Origin: a virus
Strand: one strand, 5' to 3'
DNA: 64,000 bases
IMG/VR virus record: IMGVR_UViG_3300033144_003384
Coordinates: 1-64,000 of that record
This document shows, one piece after another, positions 12,089 through 30,335 of this stretch; the first letter of the stretch is position 1; every line of letters begins with the position of its first letter. The position numbers and the translations under genes are program-made. The notes under the pieces are model-generated. The model had not been told where the DNA came from, did not search any database, and was given only the letters and a program-made list of their open reading frames with translations.

Positions 12089-12867
12089 CAGTTGACCTGG
12101 TCGACCGTGATTGCGTCCACGAAACCTTGGGCTTCCTTGCCAAGAAGTAGGCGCGATGCCTCTTCAAGGCCGATCTTGTCCATGAGCTTCGCAATATCGT
12201 AGAACTTGCGCAACGAAATGCGCTTGCTGCCTGCGTCTGCCATTTTGTCTGCGTAGTCACGGAACTCGCGGGGGAGTCGCCGTAGCGCGTCCGGATGTGG
12301 ACGGTCGACGCGAACGGTTGCGGGGAATCGGTCGATCAATGCTTCTGGCAAGTCGGCCGGATTTTCGACGTTTGTTGTCATGATCACGGTGAACCCGTCA
12401 CGTGGACGGTGGATGCGACTTGTCTTGGGGTGCTCCCATTGTGCTGACTCTGCTGAGTCGGTCATGGCTAGAAGTAGCGCAAGTACGTCTCCGGATGCGC
12501 GATCAATTTCGTCAATGACGAGACGTCCGCCTGCTAAGCCGTCGCCTTCCCATGCACGTATTGCTGCACCTTCGTGATATGCCCATTCCGCACCTGCTGG
12601 CATGAAGCCACCGATGATATCGAAGTCGGTCATATCTTCTGTGCAGATGAGGCGATGGGCACCGCGGTTGGTGTCGCCCATGTTGAGACCCGCGTGGGTC
12701 TTTCCTGTTCCTGGGGGGCCGTGTAGGATCATTCGATCAATGCCCGCGTTGAGCATTATGTCGACATCTTTCCAACATTGTGGCGCTGTTTCTGAAAGCA
12801 TGTTTTTCCTTTCTGCTTCCTCTTTGCCTATCCCTTTAACCTTACCACAGTCAATATCGTATGTCAA
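12088..12867 (-). CDS. MoxR/CobS-like AAA+ ATPase (AAA_5)
   Basis: Walker A GPPGTGKT, Walker B LVIDEIDRA, TTN sensor, LPEALIDRF. Confidence 0.9.
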   Translation of the reverse strand: MTYDIDCGKVKGIGKEEAERKNMLSETAPQCWKDVDIMLNAGIDRMILHGPPGTGKTHAGLNMGDTNRGAHRLICTEDMTDFDIIGGFMPAGAEWAYHEGAAIRAWEGDGLAGGRLVIDEIDRASGDVLALLLAMTDSAESAQWEHPKTSRIHRPRDGFTVIMTTNVENPADLPEALIDRFPATVRVDRPHPDALRRLPREFRDYADKMADAGSKRISLRKFYDIAKLMDKIGLEEASRLLLGKEAQGFVDAITVDQVN

Positions 12868-13566
12868 GGAATTGTTTCAAAGAGAAGGACCCCCCAACCG
12901 GGAGGCCCTTACTCAACTCGCCTTCGTCCTATTATCGTTGGACCACCAAGTCCGACAAACGATCTGCCTTCACCCATCGCTCTCCGTCTCCCTCCATTGG
13001 GGTCACCAATACGTCGAGGTTGCCGTACCTGTTGCGTACGTCATTGCAGAACACCGTCACCGTCAAGCCTTCGATCGGCAAGCTGGCCGTGTGCCCTACG
13101 TAGTCCCTTCTCACGTCGTCGCTTGGGGGCGGCGGTGCGGGGACAAACTTCTCCTTCTCGTTCTCTGGCATCTGTATCCTTTCTTGTGCTCGGATGCACT
13201 TGACACTATCTAAGATAACAGATATCCCTGTCCTTGTCAAGGGTTAAATTGGAGACTATCCTGTGAAGATGCTTCAGCTCATCAAAGACGCAACCTTCTG
13301 CCCAGCCTGCGGCGCAATAGCCCCGGTTCTGAGGAAGACACGCATTCCGATCCAGACTGCCAGGTGGGTGTGTGGGTCCCGCTGCTACTCGACCAAGTTT
13401 TTCGATCCGGGGCTCAACGAGGAGTTGGATGTCGAAGAGGTGTTGGATGTTGAGGCTCTGGAACAATCCGCCGGGGCTCTCCCGCCCGAACTCCGAAACC
13501 AACTGGACGCAAAGAAAGAGGGCTCCTCGGGGGAACCCTCTCTCGATCTCGATTCGTTGTTGTAGG

Positions 13567-13980
13567 TCAGGCAGCCTTTGCTTCCGTTCGGGCCAAAGCC
13601 TCCTTCAGCGCTTGTAGCTGGACGTCGAACGCCGTTCCCTCGGTGATCAGATTCTCCAATGTCATCACGGAGATGTTGGTGTACTCGTCGCCCTCGAATA
13701 GGTCGCCCCAGATGTTCGATGCGTCCACAGTCTCCATGTCGCCTGCTTCTGCGTAGTCGCCAACGATCACAACCCGATCGCCGTGCCAGCGTCCGGCAAC
13801 GTCGTTCTGTGCGAAGTCGCCACCGCCTCTCGGCTCCGGGCAGACCATCAGCATGAACATTCCCGCTGGCGTGGTGTACGAGTTTGCGGCCTGTTCCCAA
13901 GCCTTCGCACCCGAACCCATGTCCCACGGGGAAATGAACTCCTTCTTGTCTAAATTGACCACTGCGTGGTATTGTCCCAT
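13567..13980 (-). CDS. Conserved phage hypothetical protein
   Basis: MGQYHAVVNLDKKEFI...GRWHGDRVVIVGDY; own promoter and RBS GAAAGGAGG. Confidence 0.7.
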   Translation of the reverse strand: MGQYHAVVNLDKKEFISPWDMGSGAKAWEQAANSYTTPAGMFMLMVCPEPRGGGDFAQNDVAGRWHGDRVVIVGDYAEAGDMETVDASNIWGDLFEGDEYTNISVMTLENLITEGTAFDVQLQALKEALARTEAKAA

Positions 13981-14026
13981 TTGTGGCCTCCTTTCTCTTA
14001 CAGTATACAGTATCGCCTAGCGTTTG

Positions 14027-14161
14027 TCAAGCGATAAAAGAGGAAAGCCCCCGAAGGGGGATAGCTTCGTAGGCGTACTGGGAGCATGACGGTCGAAACC
14101 GACAGTGGCTCCCGATACGGGGGGAGACGATCTTTTGATACTTGCGGATCGACCAGAGCAT
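14027..14161 (-). CDS. yidD: Truncated YidD-like protein (membrane protein insertion efficiency factor), 44 aa
   Basis: [30 protein letters not shown]...G fits the YidD signature; TGATG coupling to upstream gene; lacks the C-terminal RC.P part. Confidence 0.7.
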
Positions 14162-14757
14162 CAGTGAACCCTGAAGCCGCCACGCTCGGTAGCAAGAATC
14201 AGCCACTTGATCCACTGACGCCAATGGTCGTTCCAACCATCGGCGTTCTCTTTGTCCATCGGCTCAGGCTTGTAGCCGTATTCCGAACCCACCTTGAACG
14301 GCAACTTGCCTTCGAAGGCGTCGTAGGCGTCCAAAGCAACGTTTATCTCTTCCGGCGTCACCAACCACCCGCTGTTATCACACAGCTTGTAAAGCTGGAT
14401 ACCGCCACCCTCGTAGCTCGCTAACGCCCTCTCTTGCGCTCTGCGGTACTCGGGCTGGTAGTCCTTGTCCTCGTGGTAGCGGTCGAAGTCCATGCTCTCT
14501 GGAGCCTCCGGGAATGCGGAATGGTCGGCCTCGGTGTTCACCATGCCGAACTCGTCCATAACCTCACGGACGATAGCCATACCCCAAATGTTCAATCTGA
14601 AGTACGTGTTGGCTTCCTCTTGCTTGGTGTTGAAGTCCTCCCACAATGCGTGGATTTCCTCCCTGGAAAGCTCTCCGGCCTGTTCCGCCGTCCACCAGAC
14701 GTCCGACGCCTTCTCAGTATCGGGGTCTCCTATTTCGTGGTTCATGTCGTAACCCAT
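14161..14757 (-). CDS. Conserved phage hypothetical protein
   Basis: YFRLNIWGM...[10 protein letters not shown]...GGFRV; RBS GAAAGGAGG. Confidence 0.7.
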
Positions 14758-14863
14758 TTACGACCTCCTTTCATGATTGATCTTATCACATATCTCTAAA
14801 CTTGTCAAGGGTAAAAGGGACAGGGCCCCCCGAAGGGGGCCCATTTATCGGACTGATATAGGA

Positions 14864-15286
14864 TCAGCCAAACTTCACTGTGCCTTCCTGGTTGGCAACC
14901 CTCTCGCCGCCCAGAACCCACCGCCACTGCTCCCCCTCTTCGCCCAACATTTGGACGTAGCCTTGCATGTACGGTGATAGGGCATTCCAAAACTGGTCGT
15001 CGTCGCCAAACTTCTCGCCATTGAAGCAGACTACAGAGTAGCCGCCCCGATCGTTACGTTCAAGCTCATATCGCCAAGCCTCAAACAGTTCCTCGATATC
15101 GTCGGTGTCTACCCAGTTCTCGGCCACCCATGCGAACCAATGCCGCTGTGGCTGATCTTCGCCGTAGTACCCGCCGCCAGATTTGTTCCCGGTCTTGTCA
15201 AGGAGTTTCAGGGCAGCGACAGCGCCCGGAATGTTCTCATCGGCTATGAAAGCCGTGGCCTCCACCATGCTCATGCAATAACCCAT
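14864..15286 (-). CDS. Conserved phage hypothetical protein
   Basis: GEKFGDD...GEEGEQWRW; followed by hairpin terminator. Confidence 0.65.
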   Translation of the reverse strand: MGYCMSMVEATAFIADENIPGAVAALKLLDKTGNKSGGGYYGEDQPQRHWFAWVAENWVDTDDIEELFEAWRYELERNDRGGYSVVCFNGEKFGDDDQFWNALSPYMQGYVQMLGEEGEQWRWVLGGERVANQEGTVKFG

Positions 15287-17171
15287 CAGAATACCAATGA
15301 GCTGACGAACACCGTCAGGGCAGCCACTACGCCCACTATGGGGAGTAGGCAGCCCGGTATGCCGCAGCCAACGAATGGCTCGATGCAGCCGCCGTTCTCT
15401 TCTAGCAGTAGTTGTTCTCTGATTCTCTGCTCTCTGTCCATGTCTTCCTTTCTGTCCATTACATCTTATCATGTGTAGGAGCGGGTGTCAAGCCTTCTCT
15501 GGATAATTGTTCATGCGCTCGGTAATCATCGTGTCGATGATCTCCCAGCCTCGCTCGGTGAGAATGTCTTGGACGCCTTTGTTCCAGTACCATGAATCGA
15601 GGATGTGTGTCTTGATTTCTTCAGACCATTCCGGCCAGCCCTCGTCTTCTTGGTACTGCTCGTAGAGGGATTCCACATCCCCCGGCGAGAAGACCGTGCC
15701 AGCCCCGTCGATTGCACGGATGATCGTATGGAGTTGGTCGTTCAGTGTGTTCATTTCGTTTTCACCTTTCCTTGGGCGATTGCCCGTCTAAGTTGGGGGC
15801 ACCTTCCGACGTGCTGTCCTAGTTGCGCTCCCCTGATTCGTTGCCCGCAGTAGCACTGGAACTCAGCCATCGTATCCGTCCTCCGCTTTGACCTCTTCAC
15901 GCTCGGTGACCATGATGGCCATTGCGTCCTCTGCGTTGATGACCCTGATGGGTTGGCGTGGGTAGTTGTGCCAGTCGGCATCGTTGTCCCAGACCTCCTG
16001 TGTCTCGGCTTCGTAGATGTCACGGAAGTCTTTGCCTTCGTTCTCGGTTGGGAACACGACCACCAGCGGTGCGTCCCCGCTTTGCTCGATGACCACGGCG
16101 TATTTGATGATGGGGATGTATGCCATCAGAATGATCCTTCCGCAATAGCGTTCCTCTTGTCTTTGAGCATTTCCACGAAGTCGTCCCATTCCCAGCCGAT
16201 GCTTTCCATGTGCATATCGTGACCATCGTGGTCAACGAGGTACAGGTCGATGATGACGCCTTCGCCGGTCACGGACATCGTGACGGACTCACCGCTCTCG
16301 ACGTTGTCGTACACATAGGAGATATCGCCGTCGTGATTGACCTCAAGCACCCGTTGCTCTAGGTTCTCTTCTGGTGTCAGTAGCGTTTGCTTCATGGTGT
16401 CCAGTCTCCTGACTTTGCTGCGTCAATCGTGACAATGACATCCTGAGCCTTGCGACGCTCATCGGCGCGGCTCCAATGTGTCTGGGTGTCCACGATCCAT
16501 TGCATCGCTGTCTCGATTGTCTCTAGGTCGTCGGAGTCAAGCCCAACGAATAGGATGTCGCTCATGGTGTCTCCAATACGATTCGGTCGGGGAGGATTAC
16601 TCGCGTGATGATGTTGACGTAGTGCCAACCTAGAAGGACGTCGCCGCCTTCGCCGTTGACGTACTCGCACGTTTCCTCGTCGTGCTGTCCATCGGTGTAC
16701 TCGGGGTCGTCCTCGTCCATGATGCATTCGCAATATCCTTCGTCCATGACGGACACTAGGCGATTGTTCTTACACAGGTCGTTGACTCTTGGGTCGTTGT
16801 GGAAGATTTCGTCGGCGTCGTACGGGTTGAATCCGTGCGTGTCGATAAATGCGTCCACCGTGAGAATATCGTAGGTCATTCTTCCACCCTTATGATTTGC
16901 GTGTCGTATCCCCAATGCTTGTCGCCAATGAAGATGGGGGCGTTGTTCTTGAAGTCGATTTCGGTGACGACCTCTGTTACGATCTGGCCACCGAATAGCG
17001 ACCATGTCACCGTGTCCCCAATTTCGTAGGGGCGTTGCGGTGCGGTGTAGTCGTATTCCCAAGTCGTTTCGTTGAGGGTGTGTCGTTCTGGTGCGTATGG
17101 GTCTTCTGCCATTTCGGCCTCCTTATGCTTATCAGTATATAGGATGGGGGAGGGTATGTCAAGGATTATCT

Positions 17172-17444
17172 TTACTGTTTGTGGCCGCTGACGAATATCG
17201 TAGGTATCGCACGGGACACGGGGTCAACGATCACCACAAGCCTCGTATCTTGACCGTGGTACTTCCATTGATGCGGATGCAGCTTGCTGGCGTAGGTCAT
17301 CGAGGGGTTCCGAAGAGCGTCCCTGATTATCCTTACCGCCTCATCGACGGTCTTAGCAAACCCGCGCTCGGGGTTAAGGGCAGCGTTCAAAGCGTGCCTC
17401 GTAATCCGATAGTTCTCGGGATGCCGAGGGGGGAGGTTGTTCAT
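17172..17444 (-). CDS. DUF4258-like small protein (possible RelE-like RNase fold)
   Basis: ITRHA...ALRNP...LVVIVD...IPTIF. Confidence 0.45.
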   Translation of the reverse strand: MNNLPPRHPENYRITRHALNAALNPERGFAKTVDEAVRIIRDALRNPSMTYASKLHPHQWKYHGQDTRLVVIVDPVSRAIPTIFVSGHKQ

Positions 17445-18353
17445 CCAATTATCCTTTCAGGTATGAAACGATGCGGATAACCACATATGCGATTCCGCAC
17501 CATAGGCCGAGGCCGACAATCACCTGACCGATTAGGTGGTGCCGCGGGATGCCGAGGTGTGATCGTTGTCGGTACTCGTGGCGTCCCGCCATCAGTATCC
17601 GATCCTTTCTCCGAGGTCGAAAACACGTTGCATTAACGCACCCCAACCGCAGTAGTAGTGGGCGGCGGTGAACCGCTTGGTTTTGGGGTAGTAGGTGATG
17701 GTGGCGTACGCTTCGTCGGTACGCATATCGCCCTCACCAGGATTCAGCTCATAGGGCTGGTCGAGGTTGATCCCGCACGAACCGCACGGAATATCGCCCG
17801 CCACGCTCAATGGCATGTGAATCATCAGGGACTTGCGGAACCGCTTGGTTCCCTCCCTGATGGCGTCGAAGCTGTCAGCCTCGTGGTATGCCTTGGCTCC
17901 ATGTTCCCATGGTCGCCGGAAGGCTGGTTTGGAAGTGGTAGTAGTCACTTTGCTCCTTTCAGGCTTGTTGACTTACTCCTTATAGTATGCCATACCCCCG
18001 ACAGCTTGTCAAGAGATATTTCGGATTGTTTTGTTCCGAACATACGTTCGACGAACACCCGTTCGATTACCGTCAGCCAATCACCCGAGGAGAGAACATG
18101 GCCTGCACTTACTGCGGCACAGACTTCGAAGAAGCGGGACTGGAGGAGTGTCCCAACTGCGATCCGCCGGAGGAAGCTCTTCCCCTCGTTGAGCCCCGAA
18201 TTTCTTCAGATTTGGCGGGGCTTGCCAGGTGGACTCGTGGTTGTTGAGCTGGGAACATGGCTCTTCCTCGGGTGGGTGTTTTATAGGGTCAGTAAGTCCC
18301 GGCAGTACAGGTAAACCCCCGCATCACTCGGATACGGGGGTTGCTCCTTCGGC

Positions 18354-18557
18354 TCACTTGATAACGGTGAATCCGTCGATTCCAACCAACATGATGAGGT
18401 TCGATCCGTCATCCCACTTGACTCCCACTTGCTGCGGGTCGCCATATCGGGATTCGGCTCCGACGTAGTTGACTACGCCTTCATCGCCGGATTTCAGGTG
18501 GGTGTAGGCATCGTCCGTGTAGTCCAGACGAACCCTTTGCTCTTTCCTGTAGGTCAT
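18354..18557 (-). CDS. DUF4314 protein
   Basis: RVRL..TDD.Y..L..G.EG.V..V...VKWDDGSNL....G.D.F. Confidence 0.75.
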   Translation of the reverse strand: MTYRKEQRVRLDYTDDAYTHLKSGDEGVVNYVGAESRYGDPQQVGVKWDDGSNLIMLVGIDGFTVIK

Positions 18558-18740
18558 TTATTCTCTCCTTCGCAATAGACGTATGCCCAATTGAAGTCGT
18601 AAAGCTCGTCAATGTCCTGCTGGTCAAGGAGGTCCGACATGGCTTCCTCAACCACGACTGCTGCCTTGTCCGCCCCTTCGTCGCATTCCATAACGACAGT
18701 TACCTTCACCGTCTTCATTTCGCTCTTTGTGGTCCTCATT

Positions 18741-19100
18741 TCACTCCTTGTAGTTGTCGTCGTCGGTGACACCGGAAGCTCCTATGAGGTTCAGGCTGTC
18801 GTATGCGTCGCTCGGGTCGTCGCCCCAAGTCATGCCGCCGGTCAGATAGTACCATCTGCCGTCGAAACGCATCTGCACAACGTCACGCCGATCGCCGGAA
18901 ACGATGTCCCAAGCTTCGACCAAGTATGCCCGTATCTCCGCAATGGCTCCTATGTCCGTGTCTTTGTCCTCCATCACCCACGGTGCGTAATCGTCCACTA
19001 GGTCCAAAAGCTTGTCTGAATCCAACGTGTCGATCCTGTCCGGTACCGTGGATGGGTCTTGGGGGACCGCTGCGGCAACGAGGATTAGGTCAGCGCCCAT
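18741..19100 (-). CDS. Hypothetical phage protein
   Basis: MGADLI...TGGMTWGDDPSD; RBS GGAG. Confidence 0.6.
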   Translation of the reverse strand: MGADLILVAAAVPQDPSTVPDRIDTLDSDKLLDLVDDYAPWVMEDKDTDIGAIAEIRAYLVEAWDIVSGDRRDVVQMRFDGRWYYLTGGMTWGDDPSDAYDSLNLIGASGVTDDDNYKE

Positions 19101-19816
19101 ACTGAATCTCCGCAATGATGTCGCCGTACAGTCGGTTGCTGTCGGCCCACGCCATTTCACCCTTGAAGGTCTTGGCGCGCCGGTATGACTGTCCGGTTGG
19201 GTTGTCGGTGGCGGTGACCTTGTAGGCACCGTTCGTCCATGCCCACGGCTTTCCGTCAGCATCGTTTAGTCCTATCTCTACTAGGTCGGCAACCTGCTCG
19301 GTGATTGTTACGTCACGTTGATCGGCTGCCCACCTATCAGAAACAACGCGCTGCTGTCGTGCAACGCGCCATTCCTGGATTTCGTATTTCGGCATCACTC
19401 TCCTTTGGTAATCCGTATCGCCGTGTATGGCGTGCGGGTGATCGCGGCTTCGACTTCGACTGCATCCTCGTGGATGAGTCCAACCTCTACGGCTGCGTCG
19501 AATGCTTTGTGGTTGACGGCGACCTTTGTCACTCTGTCAAAAACGTCTGCGGTGAGGAACACTCGTAGCCTGTCGGCGTTGATTGTCCGTCGGTCTGCGT
19601 CGATCCTTGTCACCAAGGTTCCGTCGGGAAGCTCTACGGATACGTCTAGCGCCTTGAAGGCGTCCTCGGCGTCCTTGAGCATTTCCTTGACGTTGGCCAA
19701 GGCGGTGCGTGCATCTAGTACACGCTGGGCAGCGACCAAGCCCTCTTGGGCTTCTCGGTCGATGTTTAGGGGTAGTGCCATTGGGTTCTCCTTTTGTTGC
19801 ACTCCTTATGCTTATC

Positions 19817-19897
19817 AGTGTATAAGGTCGGCGCTCTCTTGTCAAGTCATTTATCTGAAAAGAATCACTTGACATACTGTCCCCAATAGTGTATAAT
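19817..19897. promoter_or_regulatory. Back-to-back sigma-A-type promoters
   Basis: Minus TTGACA(19845-40)-17-TACACT; plus TTGACA(19869)-17-TATAAT(19892); ATG 6 nt later at 19904. Confidence 0.85.
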
Positions 19898-19903
19898 AGA
19901 GGT

Positions 19904-20254
19904 ATGAGAACAAGAACAGAAACGCCCCAAATTGGAGCGACCATCAAAGACAAACGGTGGCACTTCATCCCCGAAGGTAAGTGGCTCTGGTCTTACTGCG
20001 GCCTGCGCCTAACCGACGAACCGCACCTAAACAAGCTACTCGACCACCTAGCCCCAAGCTGGGACACCACGATGAACGCTTGTGATGAGTGCCTTCAGGC
20101 TCACAAAGACTGGCTGGAAAGCCCGACCGAATACGAACAAGAGAGAAAGTGGGCGAACAACCATATGGCATCCATCATGGGAACCCCAGCGCCAAGCTTC
20201 GATGACTTCGGGGATTGGCTTCAGTACGACGACGAGGACGAGGAAGCTGCGTGA
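19904..20254 (+). CDS. Hypothetical Zn-binding protein, leaderless
   Basis: H...YCG...CDEC; terminator hairpin follows. Confidence 0.6.
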   Translation: MRTRTETPQIGATIKDKRWHFIPEGKWLWSYCGLRLTDEPHLNKLLDHLAPSWDTTMNACDECLQAHKDWLESPTEYEQERKWANNHMASIMGTPAPSFDDFGDWLQYDDEDEEAA

Positions 20255-20573
20255 CAAAAGGAGATTTGGCCCCCTGCTCCGGCGGGGGGCTTTTCCTGTG
20301 CCGCCGGGACTGTTGGAGTACACTGAAGGCATGAAGTACAAGAAGTGCGACGACTGCACGAGATATGTCCCCGCCTCCCAGGTAGCCCCGATCGGGGCAC
20401 TCCTTCGGTGCGATGAATGCACTGATTTCGAGACGATGACAAGGCTTCTCCCCCGCCAACCGGAGGAAACGTGGGTCGAGATGTGGGACCACGAAAACCC
20501 TTTCAGCCCATACGATGATGGCCGTGGGTATTACGCTCCAGTATATGTGGCGTAGCCGGGGCTAATTGGGCAC

Positions 20574-20605
20574 AAAAGAAAGGCCGCCCGCTAAGGCGAC
20601 CCTTC
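20574..20605 (-). terminator. Intrinsic terminator closing the ncRNA operon
   Basis: Minus GAAGGGTCGCC-TTAGCG-GGCGGCCTTTC followed by TTTT. Confidence 0.7.
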
Positions 20606-20651
20606 TCGTTTTGCTCTGACCCGTTTTGCTCCAGTTGGAGTGGGTACTGGC

Positions 20652-20731
20652 TGGTGGAGCTGGCGGGAATCGAACCCGCTTCCAGACATTTGCACTTCGG
20701 CATTTCAGTCTGTCGAAACCATTACAGCCCC
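20652..20731 (-). ncRNA. ssrA: Mini-tmRNA: tRNA-like domain only, 80 nt, no tag ORF
   Basis: GGGGCTG TAATGGTTTCGA CAGAC [20 nt] GTCTG GAA GCGGG TTCGATT CCCGC CAGCTCC ACCA; G3-U70 pair, tmRNA-type D-loop, P2a, T-arm and encoded CCA. Confidence 0.85.
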
Positions 20732-20732
20732 T

Positions 20733-20812
20733 TGGTGCCAACCTGCGGAATTGAACCGCAGCCCCTTTCCCGATATCACTCGGGGGTTACCTTGGGTGTT
20801 TATCCCGTTGGC
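20733..20812 (-). ncRNA. Atypical tRNA-like RNA (acceptor stem, T-arm and ACCA; no canonical anticodon arm)
   Basis: GCCAAC...CTGCGG TTCAATT CCGCAG GTTGGC ACCA; internal CCCGA-GTGATA-TCGGG has a 6-nt loop. Confidence 0.7.
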
Positions 20813-20813
20813 A

Positions 20814-20986
20814 TGGTAGTTGCTCGATCCCCCTCCGGAGAGTGGGGGCAGTAGGGAGGCTATCCGCGTCTTACCTTTTCAGCAGGGCTCGTATTAGGTT
20901 TCCCCGCGCAGTCCCCGTTGGGGGCGATGCGGGTTTCGCTGCCGGAGGTTCACTCCCGTCCCCACACTCAGGGTGGGGATCGAACT
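20814..20986 (-). ncRNA. ~173-nt rod-shaped structured RNA (6S/Ms1-like candidate) ending in ACCA
   Basis: Nested pairings GTTCGATCCCC/GGGGATCGAGC, GAGTG-GGGG/CCCC-CACTC, GGGAG/CTCCC, GGCAG/CTGCT, CCCC/GGGG. Confidence 0.6.
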
Positions 20987-20990
20987 GTCA

Positions 20991-21051
20991 CTATTCAGTT
21001 GTCAAGGTGCTTTACTACCTATAGTGTCTCACATAACCACCCTCTTGTCAA
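20991..21051 (-). promoter_or_regulatory. Promoter plus rrn-type boxA-like antitermination sequence
   Basis: TTGACA-17-GACACT, then GCACCTTGACAACTGAATAG resembling Gram-positive rRNA-operon boxA. Confidence 0.6.
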
Positions 21052-21119
21052 GGGTTATCTCGGATTGTTTTATCTAATAAGCACTTGACACACTATGCTC
21101 AGTAGTATACAATGGATGT

Positions 21120-21347
21120 ATGCTACTAACTACTATGACACTCCGAGAGACATACGCCGCGCTCCCGTCTGCACAGACGGAACGGGTAACACGCTTCTGG
21201 TTCAAGTCGCCGTGCTACTTCGTAAGAGCAATCGACGTCGCCATTCACATCACGCTACCAGAGTTGATCGACGGCTTCATGCCGATATCGGCTGCGTGGC
21301 TCCGAAAGGAATCGCCACGCTGGGGTCGAAGCTGGAGAAGTTGGTGA
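21120..21347 (+). CDS. 75-aa hypothetical protein, paralog of 30101-30328, leaderless
   Basis: TTGACA-17-TACAAT-6nt-ATG; ends SPRWGRSWRSW. Confidence 0.8.
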   Translation: MLLTTMTLRETYAALPSAQTERVTRFWFKSPCYFVRAIDVAIHITLPELIDGFMPISAAWLRKESPRWGRSWRSW

Positions 21348-21867
21348 AAGTACCCAAAGTCGAGGGCCCCTCCGGGGGCCCTTTTCTCGTGGCCCGGTAA
21401 GCCCCGGCTTCGCCTCATCTTGGCGTGCAAGGGAGGTGCGATCCAGGTGATCCGGCGGGGCTCGACGAGGAGGGGAGGGCCATCCCTCCCCAGCCACTCG
21501 TTCTTCAGCTCCTCGCCAGCTCCCGCATGAAGTTGGCATACTGGTTGAGATAACGGTCGATCTCGGGGTTGCCCCCGACAAAGATGACCCTTTCCTCGGT
21601 GCCTTTCGAGTCCTGACCGCACGGGCAGTCATCCATCGCTGGCGGGCGATATGACGGTTGCTCCTGCCCGCAGGTAACGCAGAAGTCCTTTGTGATAGTG
21701 CTCATACCCTTCCTTTCCTATTCGGGCTTACTCCCCCATCATATCAGGGGGGTGCGACAGCTTCTCATCCTGAGCGCCTACTTCACGTTTCAAACAATTC
21801 GATATTGCCCCTAGTAATTGTCACACCCCCGTGATACACTAGTACTAACAAGAGCAAAGGAGGCAAA

Positions 21868-22092
21868 ATGATCAACATGTATCACGACCCAGAGGTACCG
21901 GCAGGGTATCAAGATGCGGACCTCGAAATGAGGGACTTGCGGGAAGCCGCAAACGAATCGTACGAACAAGCATTCAGGGGACGGTGCATTGACTGTCACG
22001 GCAGGGGCGGATATCAGGATTACAACAATCACGGTAGCCGCAGAAGCTACCAAATCTGTTCGACCTGCGGTGGTGCTGGCGAACTGTTCTGA
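21868..22092 (+). CDS. Small DnaJ-type zinc-finger protein
   Basis: CIDCHGRG and CSTCGGAG; RBS AAAGGAGG. Confidence 0.65.
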   Translation: MINMYHDPEVPAGYQDADLEMRDLREAANESYEQAFRGRCIDCHGRGGYQDYNNHGSRRSYQICSTCGGAGELF

Positions 22093-23012
22093 TCCACCAA
22101 ACTCGAAGCCCCCGCTCCGGCGGGGGTTTTCTTGTGGGCCCAGCACGCCCCGCCGATCCGCAGTTCGTCGAACGACACGAAGGTAATAGACATGGTTGTT
22201 TGAGTATGCTTACCTGGCGAAGGCGGGGCTCGCCCGGTGCAAAGGAGCCGAGTGCCCAGTTCGGATCGTTTTACCCGGTAAGCCCCGTTGACGCAAAGAA
22301 AAAGCCCCCCGACGGGGGCTCCTCCTTGTTCTTCAGCTCAGTTTGTTGTGTCGTAGTCCTTCTTGTCGAGTATTGCGTCGCAACTGATGCACTCGATCTC
22401 AAGCACTATCCGGTCAAGCGGCACAGCGTTTGCCTCGTCCATGTCGAGCCGTCCGTCCTTCGTGCTTGCTGGGACGTTATTCACATCCTCCACGAGAACG
22501 TAGACAAACTCGTGCTTGCATTCGCTCATGCTGCTACTTTCTGGCCGAGTACCAATCCGAGTACGACTGCGTCTAGGTAGTCGATGAAGTCTTGATATGT
22601 TCTCCGCCTGTCTCCGAACTTCGACGTTGATACACCTCCGTGGTCGGAGCCTTCCTCCAACCGCCAACCTCCGTAGGTGGAGTTGTAGTCGATGGTGAGT
22701 TCGAGTCCTGTCATGTTGGCGATGTTGCCAACCTTCAGGTTGATCGTCTCACGCTTGGCTTGCTTGCTCATATGCCTCTCCTGTCCATGCCACCAAGCTT
22801 TGGCTCGGTTGGCTTTCCTTGCAGGTGGCGGAGTGCCGTGAAGGTGTCCACGACGAACATGCAGTCTCGGGCAGCGTTAGCGTCGCCCTCTTCCTCGAAC
22901 ATGATGGCCATAGCCCGGAAACGCTCGATGCGTTCCAGCGATGGTGTGCGCTTCTCTATGAAGCGTCCGATCTGGTCGTGGTTTGTCATGTTGTCTCCTT
23001 TCCTTTGTTCTA

Positions 23013-23088
23013 AGTATACCAGTATTCAGGTTGGATGTCAAGTGAATAAACAAAAGGACTTGACAAAAGGGGTCCAATGCTGTATACT
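23013..23088. promoter_or_regulatory. Back-to-back sigma-A-type promoters
   Basis: TTGACA-17-TATACT on both strands. Confidence 0.85.
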
Positions 23089-23756
23089 GTAAGTAGGAAG
23101 GAGGCCACACTATGACAAAGTTTGACACACCGCTAGCAGAAAAGCTGTACGGAGAGATGCCAGACGACGAAAGCGGGTCCGTACAGGAACTCGGCTGGTA
23201 CGGACGCTACGACAGCGAGCTGGTCATCCTCAACGAAGACTCCGATGGGTTCGTCAACACATTCGAAGCAATCGACAAGGCAGACCTCGACCGATTCTGG
23301 AGCCTAGTAACCAAGGAATACGAGCTGTACTACAGCATCTCCTGACCATCAACCAAAAGGAGGAGCCTCCCTCACGGGAGGCTTTCCTTGTGTCCTCGGC
23401 AAGTCCCGCCCAGGTCAGAACAAGGGCTTCTCGGACCAGGCCACTTCGCCACGCTTCTTCGTGATGTCGATGCAGTTCCCGTGCGCCCACCCGGTTGGAC
23501 TCGAAGCCAAAGTGATCGAGTTTCCCCCGCCCTGCCTCCGGTTCTGCACCCACCCGACAACACGACGATAGTTCCCATTCGCCTTCGTGTCCACAGGCTC
23601 CTTACAGAACTCGCAATTGATGTTCGGTGTCATGTCGGTACCTTACTCTCATCAGATTTGTCCTACAACAACGACGCGGTTGCGCCATCGTTCTTGCAGA
23701 ATCCGATATCGCCGGGGCTCCAAGAGGAGGGGGCCCTTTCGGACCCCCAGCTCTCA

Positions 23757-24758
23757 TCAGACCAGATTCAGAATCGCCTGCTCGGCGACCATCTTCTTCT
23801 GCGACACCAGTGACGTTGAGTCCATGGATGCCATTGCACGGGCGATGCCCGAACCGCTGCGTCCGTGGTCTAGATACTCGGTGACAGCGTTGTACAGCCC
23901 CCATCCGTTGAACCCGACCAGACCAGCGTTGCGGTTGTTGTTGAAACGTACCCTGACGTCCGTCAAGATTTCGTCACGGTTTCGCTCTTTGCGATCCGTG
24001 TCGGCATCTGCGGCTGGCCATAAGGCGTTCAACACGACATCCACATTCTGCGATGCCTGCGGCACCGGGATGCGTAACAGCTCTTCGGCACGAGCCTTGA
24101 AGGCTTCCGCCCACTCGGTCGATATCTGCAACACCGCCTGTGCCTCTTGCAACGTGTCTTCGTAGTTCGGCGTGTGCCTTGCCTTGAAGGTCGATCGGGC
24201 CATCTGGTGGCCAAACCTGCACGTGTTGGCGCATACTGGGCGTATGTCCGTGTTTGAGTAAACGATCGGCATGGTTCCGTCGTGTGACGTTTGTACCAGC
24301 AAGAATCGGTCGATCTTGTCGTTGACACCGACGGGGTCGATGATCAGCGAGCCAAGGTCGATGGATGCGAAAAACTGGCGTCCGTCTTTCAGGACACCTA
24401 ACGTTTCGATCACAGCATCTCCGTTGGACGCGCCAACGACCGCTAGCGCCTTTTCAAGCACCACGGCGTTCTGTACTACCCGATAGCGCTTCTTCATAAC
24501 CTCGAAAGGCACCAGCGTTCCATCATGGTTGACCCGTGTCGTTGCGAAACGATCCGTGATCTCGATGAACTCACCAGCGTCATTCTGAACGAAGACAGGA
24601 CGTAGGTCGACGTGATAGTTGGCGTGTGCGATCTCAAGCATTTGCTCGGCTGATTGCAACCCAACGACTGGCGTCCCTAGTCCGTGCCATGGTGTACCAG
24701 ACTCGATGTTGTAGGCGAAGTTTGCCTTACCGTTTACGATCTCTAGTTCGTGTGACAT
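23757..24758 (-). CDS. DUF932 / TIGR03299 phage-plasmid protein
   Basis: PWHGLG, YRVVQN, SHDG, IRPVCANT, RHT, WGLYNAVTEYLDH. Confidence 0.9.
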   Translation of the reverse strand: MSHELEIVNGKANFAYNIESGTPWHGLGTPVVGLQSAEQMLEIAHANYHVDLRPVFVQNDAGEFIEITDRFATTRVNHDGTLVPFEVMKKRYRVVQNAVVLEKALAVVGASNGDAVIETLGVLKDGRQFFASIDLGSLIIDPVGVNDKIDRFLLVQTSHDGTMPIVYSNTDIRPVCANTCRFGHQMARSTFKARHTPNYEDTLQEAQAVLQISTEWAEAFKARAEELLRIPVPQASQNVDVVLNALWPAADADTDRKERNRDEILTDVRVRFNNNRNAGLVGFNGWGLYNAVTEYLDHGRSGSGIARAMASMDSTSLVSQKKMVAEQAILNLV

Positions 24759-24867
24759 GTGGTTTCTCCCCTCCTTTCCTTTTGTGTCTTGTTTAGATAA
24801 TATCACATTGAACAAACGATGTCAAGTACTTGTTGCACTCGAACACCTGTTCGGTTAGAGTTTCAGT

Positions 24868-26925
24868 ATGAAACCAGCCCAAGAGTCACAGGTTCTCCTC
24901 GCCCAAGACCACCTTGCACTCCTCTTCCCATATGTACCTGACCAGATCAAAGAACTGAAGGAGATACCCGGAGCCAAGTGGGACAAGCTCTCCCGAACTT
25001 GGCGAGTCCCGCTACGCCAGCTCGCTGATGTCAAGCGATTCGCCGAAAAACATGAGTTTTGGGTTGACCCAGATGTCCTTGCCATCCGAATGCCCGAAGA
25101 ACCCTTCGGCACAGCTCAGTTCTACCACGAGAACACCTCCTTCTACGTCGAGTTCTCCTATGACCCGGTCATGGTCCAGTCCATCAAAGAGATCACCGGA
25201 GTGAAATGGAACGGAAAAGAGATGCGCTGGTCCGCCCCCGCCTCGGCCCTCATCGAAGTCGTCAGTTGGGCCGATCGTTTCAAAGTTCCAGTCCCAGAAG
25301 ACATCCGACAACTCATCGAAGGAGAAGCCGGACTTCGAGAACAGCTCGTCGACCTGTCCCGATCAACGGGACTCGACGCCCCCATCGAGATCGCCGGGCT
25401 CGAAGGAGAGCTGATGGGGTTCCAACATGTCGGAGTGAAGTATGCCCTCGAAACCAAGAGATGCTTCATTGCGGACGAAATGGGCCTCGGAAAGACGCTG
25501 CAAGCCATCGCTGCCCTCCAAGTCGGCAAAGCGTGGCCTGCTGTCGTCGTTTGCCCACCCACACTGACCCTGAACTGGGTGTACGAGATACGAAAGTGGC
25601 TACCCGAACTCACCATCAGCCACATCCAAGGCATGGCGAAGGCTGCATACTGCTCCAGTGTCCTGGATGCCTGGGACAGTCCCGTGTCTCCGCCAGGTAA
25701 AGAAGGCTGGTTCGAGGTGTCGTCGAAGAAAGACGCCAAGGAAACTGCGGGGCTCCTCTCCTCCTCGGATGTCGTCGTCCTCGGATACTCAACCCTCGGA
25801 AGCTGGCTGCCCGTTCTCGCCCGATTCGCTACGTCAGTTGTGTTCGACGAGTCGCAATACATCAAAACGCCCACCGCCAAGCGCACCAAAGCCTCCATCA
25901 AGCTCGCCAAGGGGTGCCAGAGCGATTCTTCGATGGTGTTGTGCCTCACAGGTACCCCAATCACCAATCGGCCCGCTGAGTACGTCCCACAGCTTCAAGC
26001 CCTCGGACGCATAGACGACTTCGGTGGCGCATGGCCGTTCTACAAGAAGTTCTGCAACGCCTTCAAGGACAGGTGGGGGCAGTGGCATCTCGAAGGAGCG
26101 AACAACCTCGAAGAACTCAACTACCGCCTCCGGGCCACATGCTATGTGCGTAGGAAGAAGAACGAAGTCCTCAACGACCTCGACGAGATCAGGTACTCCG
26201 TCATTCACGTCGAAGGAGACCCGGCGGTCATGTCGGAGTACCACAAAGCGGAGCGGGACATAGCGACCTTCATGGCGAACCGGGCGGCGGAGATTGCGAG
26301 GGAACTCGGAACGAACCCTCGGTCTGCGGCTGTCCGTGCGAGAATTCGGGCGGAGTCTGCCGAACATCTCGTAAGGATTGCTGCCCTCCGTCGGCTAGCG
26401 GCAAAGGCGAAGATGAAGCCCATCATGGAGCTGGTCGATTCCCACATTGAGGACGGATCGAAGGTTGTGTTGGCAGCTCACCATCGTGATGTCGTGGATG
26501 AGTTGGCCAACAAGTACGGCGGGTACAAGATTCAGGGCGGGCAAGCCCCGGAGGAGGTTGAGCTGTTTAAGGATCGGTTCCAGAAGATGCCCGTGGATGA
26601 GGTTCCCGTGATGGTTCTTTCGATTCAGGCTGCTAAAGCGGGCCATACTTTGACGGCTGCCCAAGACATCGTGTTGGTCGAACTGCCTTGGACACCTGCG
26701 GACGTTGACCAAGTGATCGCTCGGCTTCACCGCATTGGACAGGAGGGGTCGGTGATGGCGACGTTCATGTTGACTGAAGGGACGATTGACGAGAAGCTGT
26801 ATGCCCTGTTGCGTGAGAAACGCCGCATCGTGGATGCTGCCACGGAGGGTGGCGAGCTTGTCACGGGCGACGTCCTCGGTGATTTGGTTATGTCGTTTGC
26901 TGAGATGGGCCTAGCTGATCTGTAG
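24868..26925 (+). CDS. SNF2-family helicase with two N-terminal HARP-like repeats
   Basis: IADEMGLGKT, FDESQ, LTGTP, Q..ARLHRIGQ; repeats FPY.P....LKEIPGAKW and FSYDP....IKEITGVKW. Confidence 0.9.
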   Translation: MKPAQESQVLLAQDHLALLFPYVPDQIKELKEIPGAKWDKLSRTWRVPLRQLADVKRFAEKHEFWVDPDVLAIRMPEEPFGTAQFYHENTSFYVEFSYDPVMVQSIKEITGVKWNGKEMRWSAPASALIEVVSWADRFKVPVPEDIRQLIEGEAGLREQLVDLSRSTGLDAPIEIAGLEGELMGFQHVGVKYALETKRCFIADEMGLGKTLQAIAALQVGKAWPAVVVCPPTLTLNWVYEIRKWLPELTISHIQGMAKAAYCSSVLDAWDSPVSPPGKEGWFEVSSKKDAKETAGLLSSSDVVVLGYSTLGSWLPVLARFATSVVFDESQYIKTPTAKRTKASIKLAKGCQSDSSMVLCLTGTPITNRPAEYVPQLQALGRIDDFGGAWPFYKKFCNAFKDRWGQWHLEGANNLEELNYRLRATCYVRRKKNEVLNDLDEIRYSVIHVEGDPAVMSEYHKAERDIATFMANRAAEIARELGTNPRSAAVRARIRAESAEHLVRIAALRRLAAKAKMKPIMELVDSHIEDGSKVVLAAHHRDVVDELANKYGGYKIQGGQAPEEVELFKDRFQKMPVDEVPVMVLSIQAAKAGHTLTAAQDIVLVELPWTPADVDQVIARLHRIGQEGSVMATFMLTEGTIDEKLYALLREKRRIVDAATEGGELVTGDVLGDLVMSFAEMGLADL

Positions 26926-27870
26926 CTCCTTGGCGTCTAGCCCGTCACCGCAGATGAGGCAGTACACCGCTTGGTCGATGCCTCCCTCTACGAACGTGCC
27001 TTTGTCCCAGTCCACGGTCACGGAGCTTCCGTACCTCTGGGCGTTGTATGCCATGCGCTCGGACTGCAAGACCTCCACGTACTTGTGCGGGCAGTCGGGG
27101 TCAACGGTAGGTGCGTCCTTGAACTGGTCTTCCCCGTAGTTGCCTGTGATGTACCTGTCCAGTGCGGGTCCGTCGATGGTCATGTTCGTGTCCTTGGGTT
27201 GACCATTGGGATCGGCGGGTCGATCTGTTCGTGGTCCATGATTTCGATGGCGTAACCCCCGTGCAAGTCCCGTTGGAATTGCTCGATGGCTTCGTCGATG
27301 TCGTCTGCTTCGATTGTGATTTCGACGACTAGTGCGTATGTTGCCATTTCAGCCCCTTATTTCCATCGTTCGATTGTCGGTGAAGTTGTCGAAGGCTCGG
27401 AACCCGCAGGGTTCGTATCCTCCCGACCATACGACTAGGTGTATCTGGTGGTGTTTCGGGTTGTATGTCATCCTGCGTCCTTTCCGCAGATGAGGTTGCC
27501 CATGGTTTCGCAGTTCCACCGCGGGTCGTCCTCTTGGATCGTTTGGCAGTTTGTTTCTTCGTAGCCCGTGATGCAGTTGTCTCCTTGCTCTGAGACGAGC
27601 CACAGTGCGGCCAGAAAGACCACAATAGCTAGTGCGGTTAGTGCCTTTGCCTTCACGACTTGCTCCTTGCGTCCATAGCGGCTAGGCAGAACCCTGCTAC
27701 TAGCTTGTCCCACTCATCAGCTATGTGGTTGGTGAATAGGAATTCGTTTGGCCCTTGTGTCTTTGCTGCTTCTCGGAGCCAGTCGCTTACTGTGTCTACT
27801 GGTACGGCTAGGTCGCCGTTGCGGTTGAAGTAGGGTGCTTGTGCCATGTGTCCTTTCCTTTACTCTCTAT

Positions 27871-27951
27871 AGGATATCAGGTTTCGCCCCTTTTGTCAAG
27901 GATTATTGGTTAGAACAATCACTTGACATCCCTCTCGCCATACTGTATACT
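27871..27951. promoter_or_regulatory. Back-to-back sigma-A-type promoters
   Basis: Minus TTGACA-17-TATCCT; plus TTGACA-17-TATACT. Confidence 0.8.
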
Positions 27952-28773
27952 ATGAAGTACAGAAAGAAGGGAGACAGAATGACCTACAAGATCGCAAGCA
28001 TCCTCATCATCGGAATGCGAATCGCATCCGTCACCGCACTCACGGTCGGCATGTACTTCGCAGGACAGGCAGGCTGAAACGAAGACTTCTCGTACAAGAG
28101 ATGGGTTGAACAAACAAAGCTGAAGGGGCCTTCGGGCCCCTCTTCTTTTTGGCCGCCGGGGCTCCAGGGGTTGACAACCAGCTTGTCCAGTGATATGTTG
28201 ACGACATGGAGAACAAACTCGAACGCACCCCCGACGGGTACTTCCTCATCTGGGACGGAAGAAAAGACGGCCACGATCGGGCCAACCAAAACGCTGCCCT
28301 CGTCCTCAACTGCAATCGGGACAACGGAGTCATCCCCTCGGACTACGAACTCCGCCAATATGACTCTCGCCTCGAAATCCGCACCCAATCTGAAGCCACA
28401 ATGGCCGCCATCATCCGGCTACTACTCAAGAAGCCCCGTGATCGGGGTGTTGCGTCAGCCACTGGCCAAGAACCGCAGCAGACCGCATGAACACTTCCTC
28501 CACCGCAGCAGCCCACGCTGCACGCACTGGCCGATTCATCTCAATGCTCGGCATCTCTGCGTAAGGGATCGCCACGATGACACGGCTTGGGTCTGCGGTC
28601 GTGATGATCTCGAACTCGGCTATGCCCGGAGAGGGAACAAGTATCCCGTAAACGTCGATTTGGTTTGCGAGTCCGGCGGGAGCTTGCACTACTCCGAGCA
28701 CATCTTCCCCGTCAATGTGTTCCATTGGTTCTACCATCGGCATGATCTTAGTACCGGGGCTCCTGGGGGCGGA

Positions 28774-29043
28774 TCACTCCTCGGCAGCTCGGCGTTCCCG
28801 TCGGAGCCGATCCGCTACTACACGCCGATATTTCCTGCGAGGGTCCGGCAACATCCCGCCCCACACACCTGCTTCTTGGTTGGTGTGCACCGCATACTCC
28901 AAGCATTCGTGCCGCACGCTGCACTCGGCGCAGTGCGCCATCAGCCGCTCCTGTCGTGCGGGTGAGCCAAGGTCGAAGAAGTCCAGTCCTGACTCGGCGC
29001 ATTCGCCTAAGTCTCTCCACGTGATATCGAGTTGGATAGCCAT
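28774..29043 (-). CDS. whiB: Second WhiB-family transcription factor
   Basis: WRDLGECA...FF...CAECSVRHECLEYA...GVWGG and basic tail. Confidence 0.9.
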   Translation of the reverse strand: MAIQLDITWRDLGECAESGLDFFDLGSPARQERLMAHCAECSVRHECLEYAVHTNQEAGVWGGMLPDPRRKYRRVVADRLRRERRAAEE

Positions 29044-30100
29044 GTCAAGCATTGTCGCAGCTCAACGAGGGGTTGTCAAGTCCCGTCGGCAAAGAGAAAG
29101 CCCCCGCCGGAGCGGGGGCCGTTGCTTACTTTCGGGGCCACTTTCTGCACTCGGTTGTCGGGTGCGGCTTCCCATTAGCGGGAACGTGGATTCCCATTGA
29201 TCATTCCTTTCTCTTGGCCAATCCTGCTTCGCAGTGCCTTCCCTGTCCTGTCTCTAGGCAAGTCCACTCGGCCTGCCTGTCGTCATTGCACCACCACGAC
29301 ACTGTTTCGTGTGTCTGGTTGCTTTCGTGTGATGTGACGGTGAACCTGCGTTCGGAGAGGCGGTTGGGGTTCGCGTGCTCAAGCTCGACGCCTTCGCCAC
29401 GGTGTCCGCATCCGCATCCCATGAAGTTTTTGGGTGGTGCGCCCATTGCGCCTCCTTTCTTTGTATGTTCTCATTGTACACTACGCCCTGTAGTGTGTCA
29501 AGCTTTTATTCTGAAAACCCGCCAGCGTTGTGCTCGTCGCAGCCTTCGCCATCGAAGCAGCGCTCTCCGCAATACTCGCACGGTGCCCTGTCGCACTTGG
29601 CGCATATCTCGCCGAACCTGTAGCCCAGTGTCTTGGGCAGCATCGGGAACTCGGTGCGTGTCGTCGCTCCGCATTCTTTGCATAGCGGTCCGCTCATCAG
29701 AAGTCCGCCCGATGTACCACTGGCACGCCATCGACCTCTGCCAGCATGACATGCACTAGATGACGCTTGGCCTTACTCGGCCTGAAGTGCTCCATAGCCT
29801 TCAGATGTGCGTGATAGGATGTGTCGCTCCATATCTCGACTTGCTTGCCGTCAAACATTGCGATATAGCCGTTCATACGTTGGCTCTTCCGAAGTCCCAC
29901 GTTCCGGCCTCGATCAGCTTGTCGCACACGCCGTCAAGCCTGCCGACGAAACGGCGCAGTAGCTCGGTGTGTCCGTTGTGCTTCTCAATGGAAGCGATGA
30001 GCTTGCGCGTGCGCTGTTGGTCGCTTGTGATGGCCTGTAGCACGGTCTGTGCCTCGGCGTCTGTCAGTGTTACTCGTACCATGTGTCTCCTTGTGTCTCC

Positions 30101-30328
30101 TTACCAGTTTCTCCAGCTTCGGCCCCATCGTGGTGATGTTGACCGTAGGTAGCGTGTGAGCTTCGGTGCTAGTGCCTCTGTTAGTTCGGGCAGTGCGATG
30201 TGTACTGCGATGTCGATTGACCTTACGAAGCGGCACGGTGAGCCGAATGCGAATCGGCTCTTGGGTGCTTGCTCAAAGTAGGGCAGTAGCTCAAGTGTTT
30301 CGGTGAGTGTGAATGTGCTTGTAAGCAT
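30101..30328 (-). CDS. 75-aa hypothetical protein, paralog of 21120-21347, leaderless
   Basis: TTGACA-17-TATAAT-7nt-ATG; 40/75 identical ungapped by hand count. Confidence 0.8.
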   Translation of the reverse strand: MLTSTFTLTETLELLPYFEQAPKSRFAFGSPCRFVRSIDIAVHIALPELTEALAPKLTRYLRSTSPRWGRSWRNW

Positions 30329-30335
30329 GAGTACA

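Follow-up and report, generated by a model that had tools for sequence, protein, structure and literature searches.

The window analysed here consists of the first 64 kb (64,000 nucleotides) of an 83.8-kb viral contig (IMG/VR record IMGVR_UViG_3300033144_003384), whose completeness was estimated at 56% by CheckV and whose phage genes within the window include those for an exonuclease, a helicase, a primase and an endolysin as well as a PAPS-reductase-like gene. On its minus strand, from 21051 to 20574, we studied a non-coding unit in which, reading the sequence, a promoter is followed by a boxA leader, three RNAs (RNA1, RNA2 and RNA3), a trailer and an intrinsic terminator. A previous sequence-only reading had described it as a self-contained unit of this kind. 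All of its coordinates proved correct when the minus strand was read directly, promoter, leader, RNAs and terminator were all present, and none of the six open reading frames (ORFs) overlapping the unit had a Pfam or PHROG match. The two elements that could be identified by comparison are RNA3, a reduced transfer-messenger RNA (tmRNA), and the leader, which carries a boxA of the type found ahead of ribosomal RNA (rrn) operons.

RNA3 (20731-20652, minus strand) is 80 nt long and ends in an encoded ACCA (20655-20652). It aligned end to end with the Rfam tmRNA model RF00023 (positions 1-374) at 71.9 bits, the cut-off being 47 bits, and 18 nt stand in place of 312 of the 374 model positions, so that the mRNA-like domain with its resume codon, tag frame and pseudoknots is missing. 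The alanine identity elements are retained, namely an acceptor stem with the G3-U70 pair and a discriminator A followed by CCA, and the same is true of the stemless tmRNA-type D loop (GG.UUCGAC), of the P2 helix, here capped by about 20 nt, and of the T arm. ARAGORN did not call it. Judged by this covariance-model match, RNA3 is a tmRNA reduced to its tRNA-like domain (TLD), kin to forms without a coding sequence (CDS-less) such as that of phage DS6A. The latter is listed as 'TLD only' in the tmRNA database papers (Hudson, Lau and Williams, 2014, PMC4131195; Williams group, 2025, PMC11915505), which also state that in E. coli the cell's own tmRNA is inhibited by a TLD-only molecule, for which titration of SmpB is given as a possible cause. 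The only other CDS-less forms given in the more recent paper are those of jakobid mitochondria and of two plastids (PMC11915505). We located the DS6A copy at 28478-28560 of JN698994; it scored 43.2 bits, below the Rfam cut-off, and has no encoded CCA.

RNA3 is not alone. A degenerate pattern, which fixed the first four G and a 3' CTCCACCA, retrieved 18 viral contigs with similar genes of 78-90 nt, and three further mini-tmRNAs were recovered from metagenome contigs with a pattern for the RNA2/RNA3 junction. The alignment of the family contained 20 distinct sequences, including those of the window and of DS6A, after the removal of L004 and L007, both duplicates of L002, and of L016, a duplicate of L013. 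Eight of its 16 consensus pairs showed compensatory changes, with covariation in the P2 and T stems, at positions that the search pattern had left free. Moreover, 99.1% of the alignment cells formed pairs versus 78.2% in shuffled alignments (none of 500 reached 99.1%), and the covariation score was 0.577 versus at most 0.127 when the partners were slid. The mini-tmRNA family, present in about 20 uncultured phages, is real, and with it the proposal of the earlier reading that RNA3 mimics tmRNA gains firm support. In nine of the 20 other loci, the mini-tmRNA lies within 600 nt of tRNA genes on the same strand, and such placement in phage tRNA clusters fits tRNA-type processing. Our literature search, in which most subscription journals were not covered, found no paper on a phage family of tag-less or mini-tmRNAs.

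With respect to the leader, a motif GCACCTTGACAACTGAATAGTGA begins 12 nt past the −10 box, and GCACCTTGACAACTGAATAG is read at 21010-20991 on the minus strand; the 23-mer considered as boxA extends over 20988-21010. It is unique in the phage contig at up to four mismatches, and it contains the −35 hexamer of the phage's own promoters, without a −10 box. In the predicted 447-nt transcript it is largely unpaired in both the minimum free energy and the centroid folds, and it is thus a promoter-proximal element that is predicted to be single-stranded. Compared with the published gamma-proteobacterial boxA consensus, it has three mismatches over the 10 specified positions, a level of agreement that corresponds to chance (504 such sites in the window versus 542 ± 22 expected). 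We then scanned the 17-nt core, with two positions relaxed, against species-representative bacterial genomes, which gave at least 120 loci, 80 of them examined. Among the matches listed, 75 of 81 had the actinobacterial rrn-leader form, which by our own count differs from the window at seven of the 23 positions; 33 had a 16S 5' end within 600 nt downstream, 37 belonged to loci that end too soon to tell and 11 to neither class. The exact 17-mer of the window occurred in four of the matches listed. In an Anaerolineales metagenome-assembled genome (MAG; L195/L265) it stands 86-87 nt upstream of the 16S 5' end and the identity with the window extends to 23 of 23 positions. In a Terriglobia MAG it is found about 250 nt upstream of 23S, and in a Lachnospiraceae MAG ahead of a protein gene. 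In Paenibacillus alvei (L155:5240-5809) it is situated between a good promoter and the tmRNA gene, which starts about 90 nt further on, and this suggests that ssrA may be subject to Nus-type antitermination in this bacterium.

The Anaerolineales genome belongs to the Chloroflexota according to its record name and the NCBI taxonomy. The 23-mer, at up to three mismatches, was present in 57 of 201 Chloroflexota genomes sampled, versus one of 201 for a reversed-pattern control and four of 201 in a Bacillota sample, and in all 12 Chloroflexota loci inspected for distance (12/12) it was placed 67-110 nt upstream of the 16S 5' end. From these matches, the leader is recognisable as an rrn-type boxA of the Chloroflexota kind. 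The earlier claim of an rrn-type boxA consequently stands for the Chloroflexota form and fails for the gamma-proteobacterial (E. coli) consensus, and the comparison with bacterial rrn leaders that had been suggested as a check gave identity over 23 nt to a 16S leader. NusB and NusE would be expected to bind to it. The boxA match also points to a Chloroflexota host for the phage. In four Chloroflexota rrn operons (L276-L279), it was observed that the boxA region forms one strand of a long leader-trailer helix around 16S, the reverse complement of boxA being found about 90-110 nt after the 16S 3' end. Furthermore, this boxA was found a short distance past recognisable promoters in 15 viral contigs (L280-L294), which represent about nine distinct sequences, so phages do use boxA. 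By inspection, what comes after boxA in these contigs is Shine-Dalgarno sequences and protein genes. As a separate observation, also by inspection, at least five of these groups have a near reverse-complement of boxA after the first gene, an arrangement that resembles an rrn leader-trailer helix bracketing a protein gene.

RNA1, RNA2 and RNA3 each form a closed fold with a free ACCA tail (z-scores of −3.66, −2.90 and −1.52, respectively), and the same three folds are reproduced when the whole 447-nt transcript is folded (z −3.14). RNA2 (20812-20733, minus strand; 80 nt, with ACCA at 20736-20733 and the spacer A20732) has acceptor and T stems of 6 bp each, stacked on one another, a canonical T loop UUCAAUU and a discriminator A plus CCA. 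Its 5' part is unusual: a D-like hairpin of 3 bp is followed by an insertion of 7 nt and by a 5-bp hairpin whose loop, GUGAUA, has 6 nt, and neither the 7-nt anticodon loop nor the standard D arm of a tRNA cloverleaf is present. ARAGORN in bacterial mode gave no call for RNA2, also at the 80% threshold, there was no RF00005 match at E up to 10, and no tRNA gene was called by ARAGORN anywhere in the window, in agreement with the earlier statement that none of the three is a normal tRNA. In its predicted fold RNA2 is a distorted tRNA-shaped RNA, not a decoding tRNA. The proposal that it mimics tRNA is sustained in part: the tRNA shape appears in the single-sequence fold, and no homologues back that structure. 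Derivation of RNA2 from a host-type tRNA-Ile was rejected, since 299 of 300 shuffles scored at least as high.

RNA1 (20986-20814, minus strand), about 173 nt in length, ends with ACCA at 20817-20814 and is followed by the spacer T20813; its 5' end at 20986 is a guess. Its fold of −77.4 kcal/mol, a stability not attained by any of 200 shuffles, comprises an 11-bp closing helix, an irregular rod and a 5/17-nt internal loop near the apex, and the single-stranded 3' tail is AACUACCA, with ACCA 4 nt away from the 11-bp helix. No Rfam family, 6S and Ms1 included, matched it at E up to 10. Three candidate origins or functions of RNA1 were discarded. The idea that the closing helix copies the leader-trailer helix of rrn operons was rejected, given that in those operons boxA itself pairs with the trailer and that no reverse-complement of the leader exists within the unit. 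A derivation from 16S was rejected because 100 of 100 shuffles scored at least as high. Finally, no tmRNA-like tag reading frame was seen when the reading frames of RNA1 were inspected by eye.

Synteny of the three RNAs and boxA in related phage contigs had been suggested as a check by the sequence-only reading, and relatives were sought in several sets. The protein adjoining the unit contains a DUF932 domain and its closest homologues are 82% (P0002) and 65-72% (P0003-P0012) identical. Used as a single query, it found no viral relative; an alignment of 21 DUF932 homologues led to 80 viral loci at 45-58% identity. RNA1 and RNA2 were absent from all 80 by blastn and nhmmer, and the mini-tmRNA model detected in them ordinary tRNAs only, plus one RNA of 177 nt in locus L051. 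The RNA2/RNA3 junction pattern, checked on the window and then run on metagenome contigs, gave 26 loci, mostly bacterial two-piece tmRNA genes or a tRNA adjoining a full tmRNA; three of them were the mini-tmRNAs mentioned above, located in tRNA arrays, and none of the 26 had an RNA2-like partner. Searching GenBank phages by DNA, we obtained only a 48-nt T-arm match. In 401 Chloroflexota genomes RNA1 and RNA2 gave only chance-level matches of 24-46 nt, and an exact 32-mer of RNA3 had no match in viral contigs. One DNA run provided a single identical low-depth contig of 243 nt over 20677-20919, without variation.

It is known that RNase P cuts 5' of tRNA and tmRNA. RNA2 (6+6 bp) and RNA3 (7+5 bp) each present the 12-bp coaxial acceptor/T stack followed by ACCA that is characteristic of its substrates (RCCA), and from these predicted structures a single precursor would be cut by RNase P. 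Beyond the window, at 80637-83605 of the contig (L020:16637-19605, plus strand), at least 14 canonical tRNA genes form an array, with only 0-1 nt between some of them; in this array only the Trp and Ile genes encode CCA and a gap of 760 nt separates tRNA-Leu from tRNA-Lys. The 1-nt spacing of the unit recurs in this ordinary array and is therefore the style of the phage, not something special to the unit. CCA, in turn, is encoded by all three RNAs of the unit versus two of the 14 canonical tRNA genes, and by a post hoc estimate an ACCA located exactly 1 nt before RNA2 would arise by chance in about 1 of 256 cases; the CCA ends of the unit therefore look deliberate. No RNase P RNA was detected in the phage genome, either as an RF00010 match at E up to 10 or in the all-family scan at E up to 1, although a broken or minimal form could escape the models.

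The promoter of the unit (21023-21051, minus strand) has a −35 box TTGACA at 21051-21046, a 17-nt spacer and a −10 box GACACT at 21028-21023, preceded by TG at 21031-21030 (extended −10). The −10 box is weak (3/6), and for this reason the promoter was absent from the scanner's list. TTGACA sites are abundant on the contig (75 observed versus about 41 expected), and between 12.8 and 30.4 kb 21 of 29 are followed, at a distance of 16-18 nt, by a −10-like hexamer (A at position 2 and T at position 6), in many cases preceded by TG. These 21 promoter-like sites at 12800-30400, distributed over both strands among small ORFan genes, form one class (CTTGACA, 17 nt, TAnnnT, often TG), of which the unit promoter fits as a member despite its weak −10; such a dense single-class set fits an early region. 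Several divergent, back-to-back promoter pairs were observed (19845/19869, 21051/21085, 23041/23060, 27899/27923 and 30364/30399), the second of which is made up of the unit promoter and of a scanner-listed plus-strand promoter at 21085-21113. Given the many promoters and small ORFan genes, the earlier placement of the unit in an early takeover region appears plausible.

Downstream of RNA3, the 44-nt trailer (20651-20608, minus strand) contains a small hairpin, after which two copies of GAGCAAAACG, 15 nt apart, were noted at 20631-20622 and 20616-20607. The intrinsic terminator (20607-20574, minus strand) is a GC-rich hairpin of 14 bp (20607-20576) with UUUCUUUUGU, the U-tract extending to 20574. 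The consensus scanner did not list it, and its region gave a weak hairpin-type Rfam match, ctRNA_p42d, at 24.6 bits. A plus-strand gene ending at 20555 converges on this terminator, which, having an A-tract 5' of the hairpin, may also stop transcription of that gene. At 21868-22092 (plus strand), about 800 nt from the boxA unit, there is an ORF of 74 aa with a CXXCXGXG-type zinc finger, with a Pfam DnaJ_CXXCXGXG match below threshold (21.8 bits) and weak matches to the PHROG 'anti-termination protein Q-like' (E of about 1e-3).

The architecture of the unit, the identities of RNA3 and boxA and the modular folds are established by the results above. With moderate confidence, we propose that this is a phage stable-RNA operon driven by a host-type boxA, in which RNA3 most likely blocks or short-circuits trans-translation. 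The phage promoter would give rise to an untranslated transcript of roughly 440 nt with the boxA copy within its first 30 nt. NusB and NusE of the host, together with the Nus complex, would load on this leader and provide processive synthesis and escape from Rho, as for rRNA. Host RNase P would then cleave immediately before RNA2 and before RNA3, while the 3' sides would be trimmed by exonucleases as far as the encoded CCA, leaving three stable CCA-ended RNAs. RNA3, which keeps the pair that specifies alanine as well as its SmpB- and EF-Tu-binding parts and has no tag reading frame, would be alanylated and, with both proteins, would occupy stalled ribosomes or titrate SmpB. In competing with the host tmRNA for SmpB and stalled ribosomes, it would block or short-circuit tagging during infection. 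RNA1 and RNA2 would be co-products, taken here as further decoys or scaffolds for host tRNA- or RNA-binding factors. Inhibition of trans-translation is favoured because of the DS6A precedent, the main rival being rescue without a tag.

Several points must be set against this proposal. The inhibition was seen with DS6A in E. coli, not with RNA3, according to the database papers (PMC4131195, PMC11915505). G3-U70 is invariant in the family (20 of 20 rows) in part because the search pattern fixed the pair in 16 of the 20, and only L032, L033, L039 and DS6A test its U independently. No homologues of RNA1 or RNA2 were found in any set searched; their structures are therefore those of one sequence and the function assigned to them is a guess. 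The RNA ends and processing steps given here are predictions from sequence and folds. SmpB, the CCA-adding enzyme, RtcB and Ro were not found to be encoded on the contig (56% complete), nor were an integrase or a resolvase; therefore host factors must serve, and no phage gene ties the RNAs to a pathway. As for the host, boxA is the sole basis of the assignment, the GenBank relatives of the DUF932 protein, at no more than 32% identity, are mostly from actinobacteriophages, and this protein had no match in the 401 Chloroflexota genomes at E 1e-30.

The alternative that survives best is that RNA3 helps the phage. Its alanine would accept the nascent chain on broken mRNAs, such as those left by host or phage RNases, ribosomes would be recycled and phage products would not be marked for proteolysis. 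We regard this as a possibility to be held tentatively. The CDS-less tmRNAs of jakobid mitochondria and of two plastids persist alongside SmpB, and it is believed that they continue to be of use where mRNAs are incomplete (PMC11915505). RNA3 likewise retains all the tRNA-like features for ribosome entry, and the encoded CCA and the rRNA-style expression suggest an RNA needed in quantity. However, there is no known route for ribosome release after transfer to a tmRNA without a frame, and the sole experiment on a phage form in those sources, DS6A in E. coli, resulted in inhibition (PMC4131195, PMC11915505).

Two broader interpretations take the three RNAs as a set. In the first, the unit would imitate the front half of a host rRNA operon, with boxA, RNA1 at the place of 16S, an RNA with a U-GAU-A loop and an RNA with alanine identity, and this layout would yield Nus-chaperoned decoys at rRNA level that disable translation quality control, RNA1 and RNA2 being new classes of decoy. 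The order boxA, 16S, tRNA-Ile(GAU), tRNA-Ala was indeed found in the four Chloroflexota rrn operons examined (4/4). Descent from an rrn operon is unsupported by sequence, considering that RNA2 versus tRNA-Ile and RNA1 versus 16S are both at chance level and that RNA3 alone resembles tRNA-Ala, as any tmRNA does. We consider this extension of the proposal unlikely. In the second, which was the view of the sequence-only reading and which we also find hard to favour, the RNAs would mimic a 6S-type RNA that binds RNA polymerase, a tRNA and a tmRNA, as an RNA-only takeover kit. It accounts for the tmRNA mimic RNA3, for the tRNA-shaped RNA2 and for the promoter, boxA and terminator common to all three, and RNA1 is a stable, rod-like RNA of 173 nt, approximately the size of 6S, with an asymmetric internal loop. 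Nevertheless, RNA1 has no match to 6S, Ms1 or any other family at E up to 10, its largest loop (5 versus 17 nt, as predicted from one sequence only) is near the apex and not central, and no homologues were found with which these structures could be tested. As modelled, RNA1 does not support a 6S-like reading, and this part of the earlier view was not upheld.

It is quite improbable that the RNAs act as decoys soaking up host defence nucleases or toxins that attack the acceptor/T-arm regions of tRNAs or tmRNA. Phage tRNA genes are often read as a compensation for attacks on tRNA, and this phage has at least 14 of them, in addition to two or three CCA-ended tRNA-like ends without decoding function. 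On the other hand, no defence or counter-defence gene was identified beside the unit, the neighbours being ORFans, and the mini-tmRNA family keeps features of the SmpB and AlaRS type and not generic tRNA features. Lastly, 3' fragments of tRNA or tmRNA genes are carried by phages whose integration sites lie in such genes, and the lack of detected relatives of RNA1 and RNA2 would suit decayed remnants or an attP with gene fragments and no RNA function. This reading is already disfavoured and scarcely credible, since every acceptor stem has its two halves, paired with each other, and not just a 3' fragment, the unit is equipped with a promoter, a boxA and a terminator of its own, the RNA3 family covaries and, no integrase or resolvase having been found on the contig (56% complete), an attP is unsupported.

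These results have a wider bearing. In the literature found, DS6A alone among phages had a tag-less tmRNA, and there is now a covarying family in about 20 uncultured phages. In the phage of the window, a mini-tmRNA and two other RNAs with CCA ends are placed behind an antitermination signal of the kind that hosts use for rRNA. Three questions are made testable in this way: whether phages switch off or hijack ribosome rescue; whether they use boxA for stable RNAs as cells do for rRNA and apparently, in Paenibacillus alvei, also for tmRNA; and what the role of non-decoding tRNA-shaped phage RNAs is. In addition, a boxA match is a cheap host-prediction signal for uncultured phages, pointing here to the Chloroflexota, a phylum with few known phages.

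The unit can be compared with several known systems. As with the boxA of rrn operons and of the lambda type described by Baniulyte et al. (2017, PMC5725501), its leader carries, directly behind the promoter, a short element that is single-stranded, and the operon is an untranslated or phage one. It differs in that its form departs from the gamma-proteobacterial consensus at three of 10 specified positions and matches the Chloroflexota form, in that no boxB hairpin or N-like protein was identified, and in that it drives small RNAs and not rRNA or phage protein genes. 6S RNA (RF00013) is similar to RNA1 in length and in the rod-like predicted fold with an internal loop; RNA1 differs in that its loop is asymmetric and apical and in that the covariance model gave no match. 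The stable RNAs of T4, which are made together with tRNA-type genes, are the nearest analogy for RNA1 and RNA2, by description only; they lie within the tRNA cluster (2022, PMC9697503), whereas the unit of the window is about 60 kb from the tRNA array of its phage.

Among uncultured viruses, a comparable unit was that of G001 (L019/L132/L133), a terminally redundant viral contig with a CheckV completeness of 100%. It was observed there (L132:144-206 and L133:700-1430, both minus strand) that a terminator is followed by a Pistol ribozyme (53.5 bits; Rfam cut-off 34.5 bits), an RNA that we call RNA X, a structured stretch, a mini-tmRNA (76.7 bits) and, after 1 nt, a non-canonical T-arm RNA and a terminator. 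The L051 unit (L051:3774-4166, plus strand) starts with a promoter, after which come a Pistol ribozyme (56.7 bits), RNA X and the 177-nt RNA already mentioned, which is of the acceptor/T-arm type and has GCCA as its end. RNA X measures about 115 nt and is conserved between G001 and L051 and absent from the genome of the window phage. What the G001 unit has in common with ours is a multi-RNA phage unit with a mini-tmRNA and a T-arm RNA 1 nt downstream, L051 sharing with G001 only the Pistol ribozyme and RNA X. Unlike the unit of the window, both have a 5' end generated by the self-cleaving Pistol ribozyme, contain RNA X and lack boxA. Therefore, multi-RNA units including mini-tmRNAs recur in phages and are built from different parts.

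With regard to RNA3 itself, the DS6A tmRNA is alike in its size of about 80 nt, acceptor stem, tmRNA-type D loop, P2 helix and T arm and in having no tag frame. It is unlike in that it stands alone between two protein genes, without an encoded CCA and at 43.2 bits, whereas RNA3, at 71.9 bits and with its CCA encoded, comes third and last among the RNAs of an operon headed by boxA. The forms of jakobid mitochondria and of Mallomonadaceae plastids (PMC11915505) are also tmRNAs cut down to the tRNA-like part and retained by selection; they belong to organelles, depend on SmpB that is imported and presumably benefit the genome that encodes them. RNA3, unlike them, is encoded by a virus, and the host, which it would either oppose or work beside, possesses a complete tmRNA.

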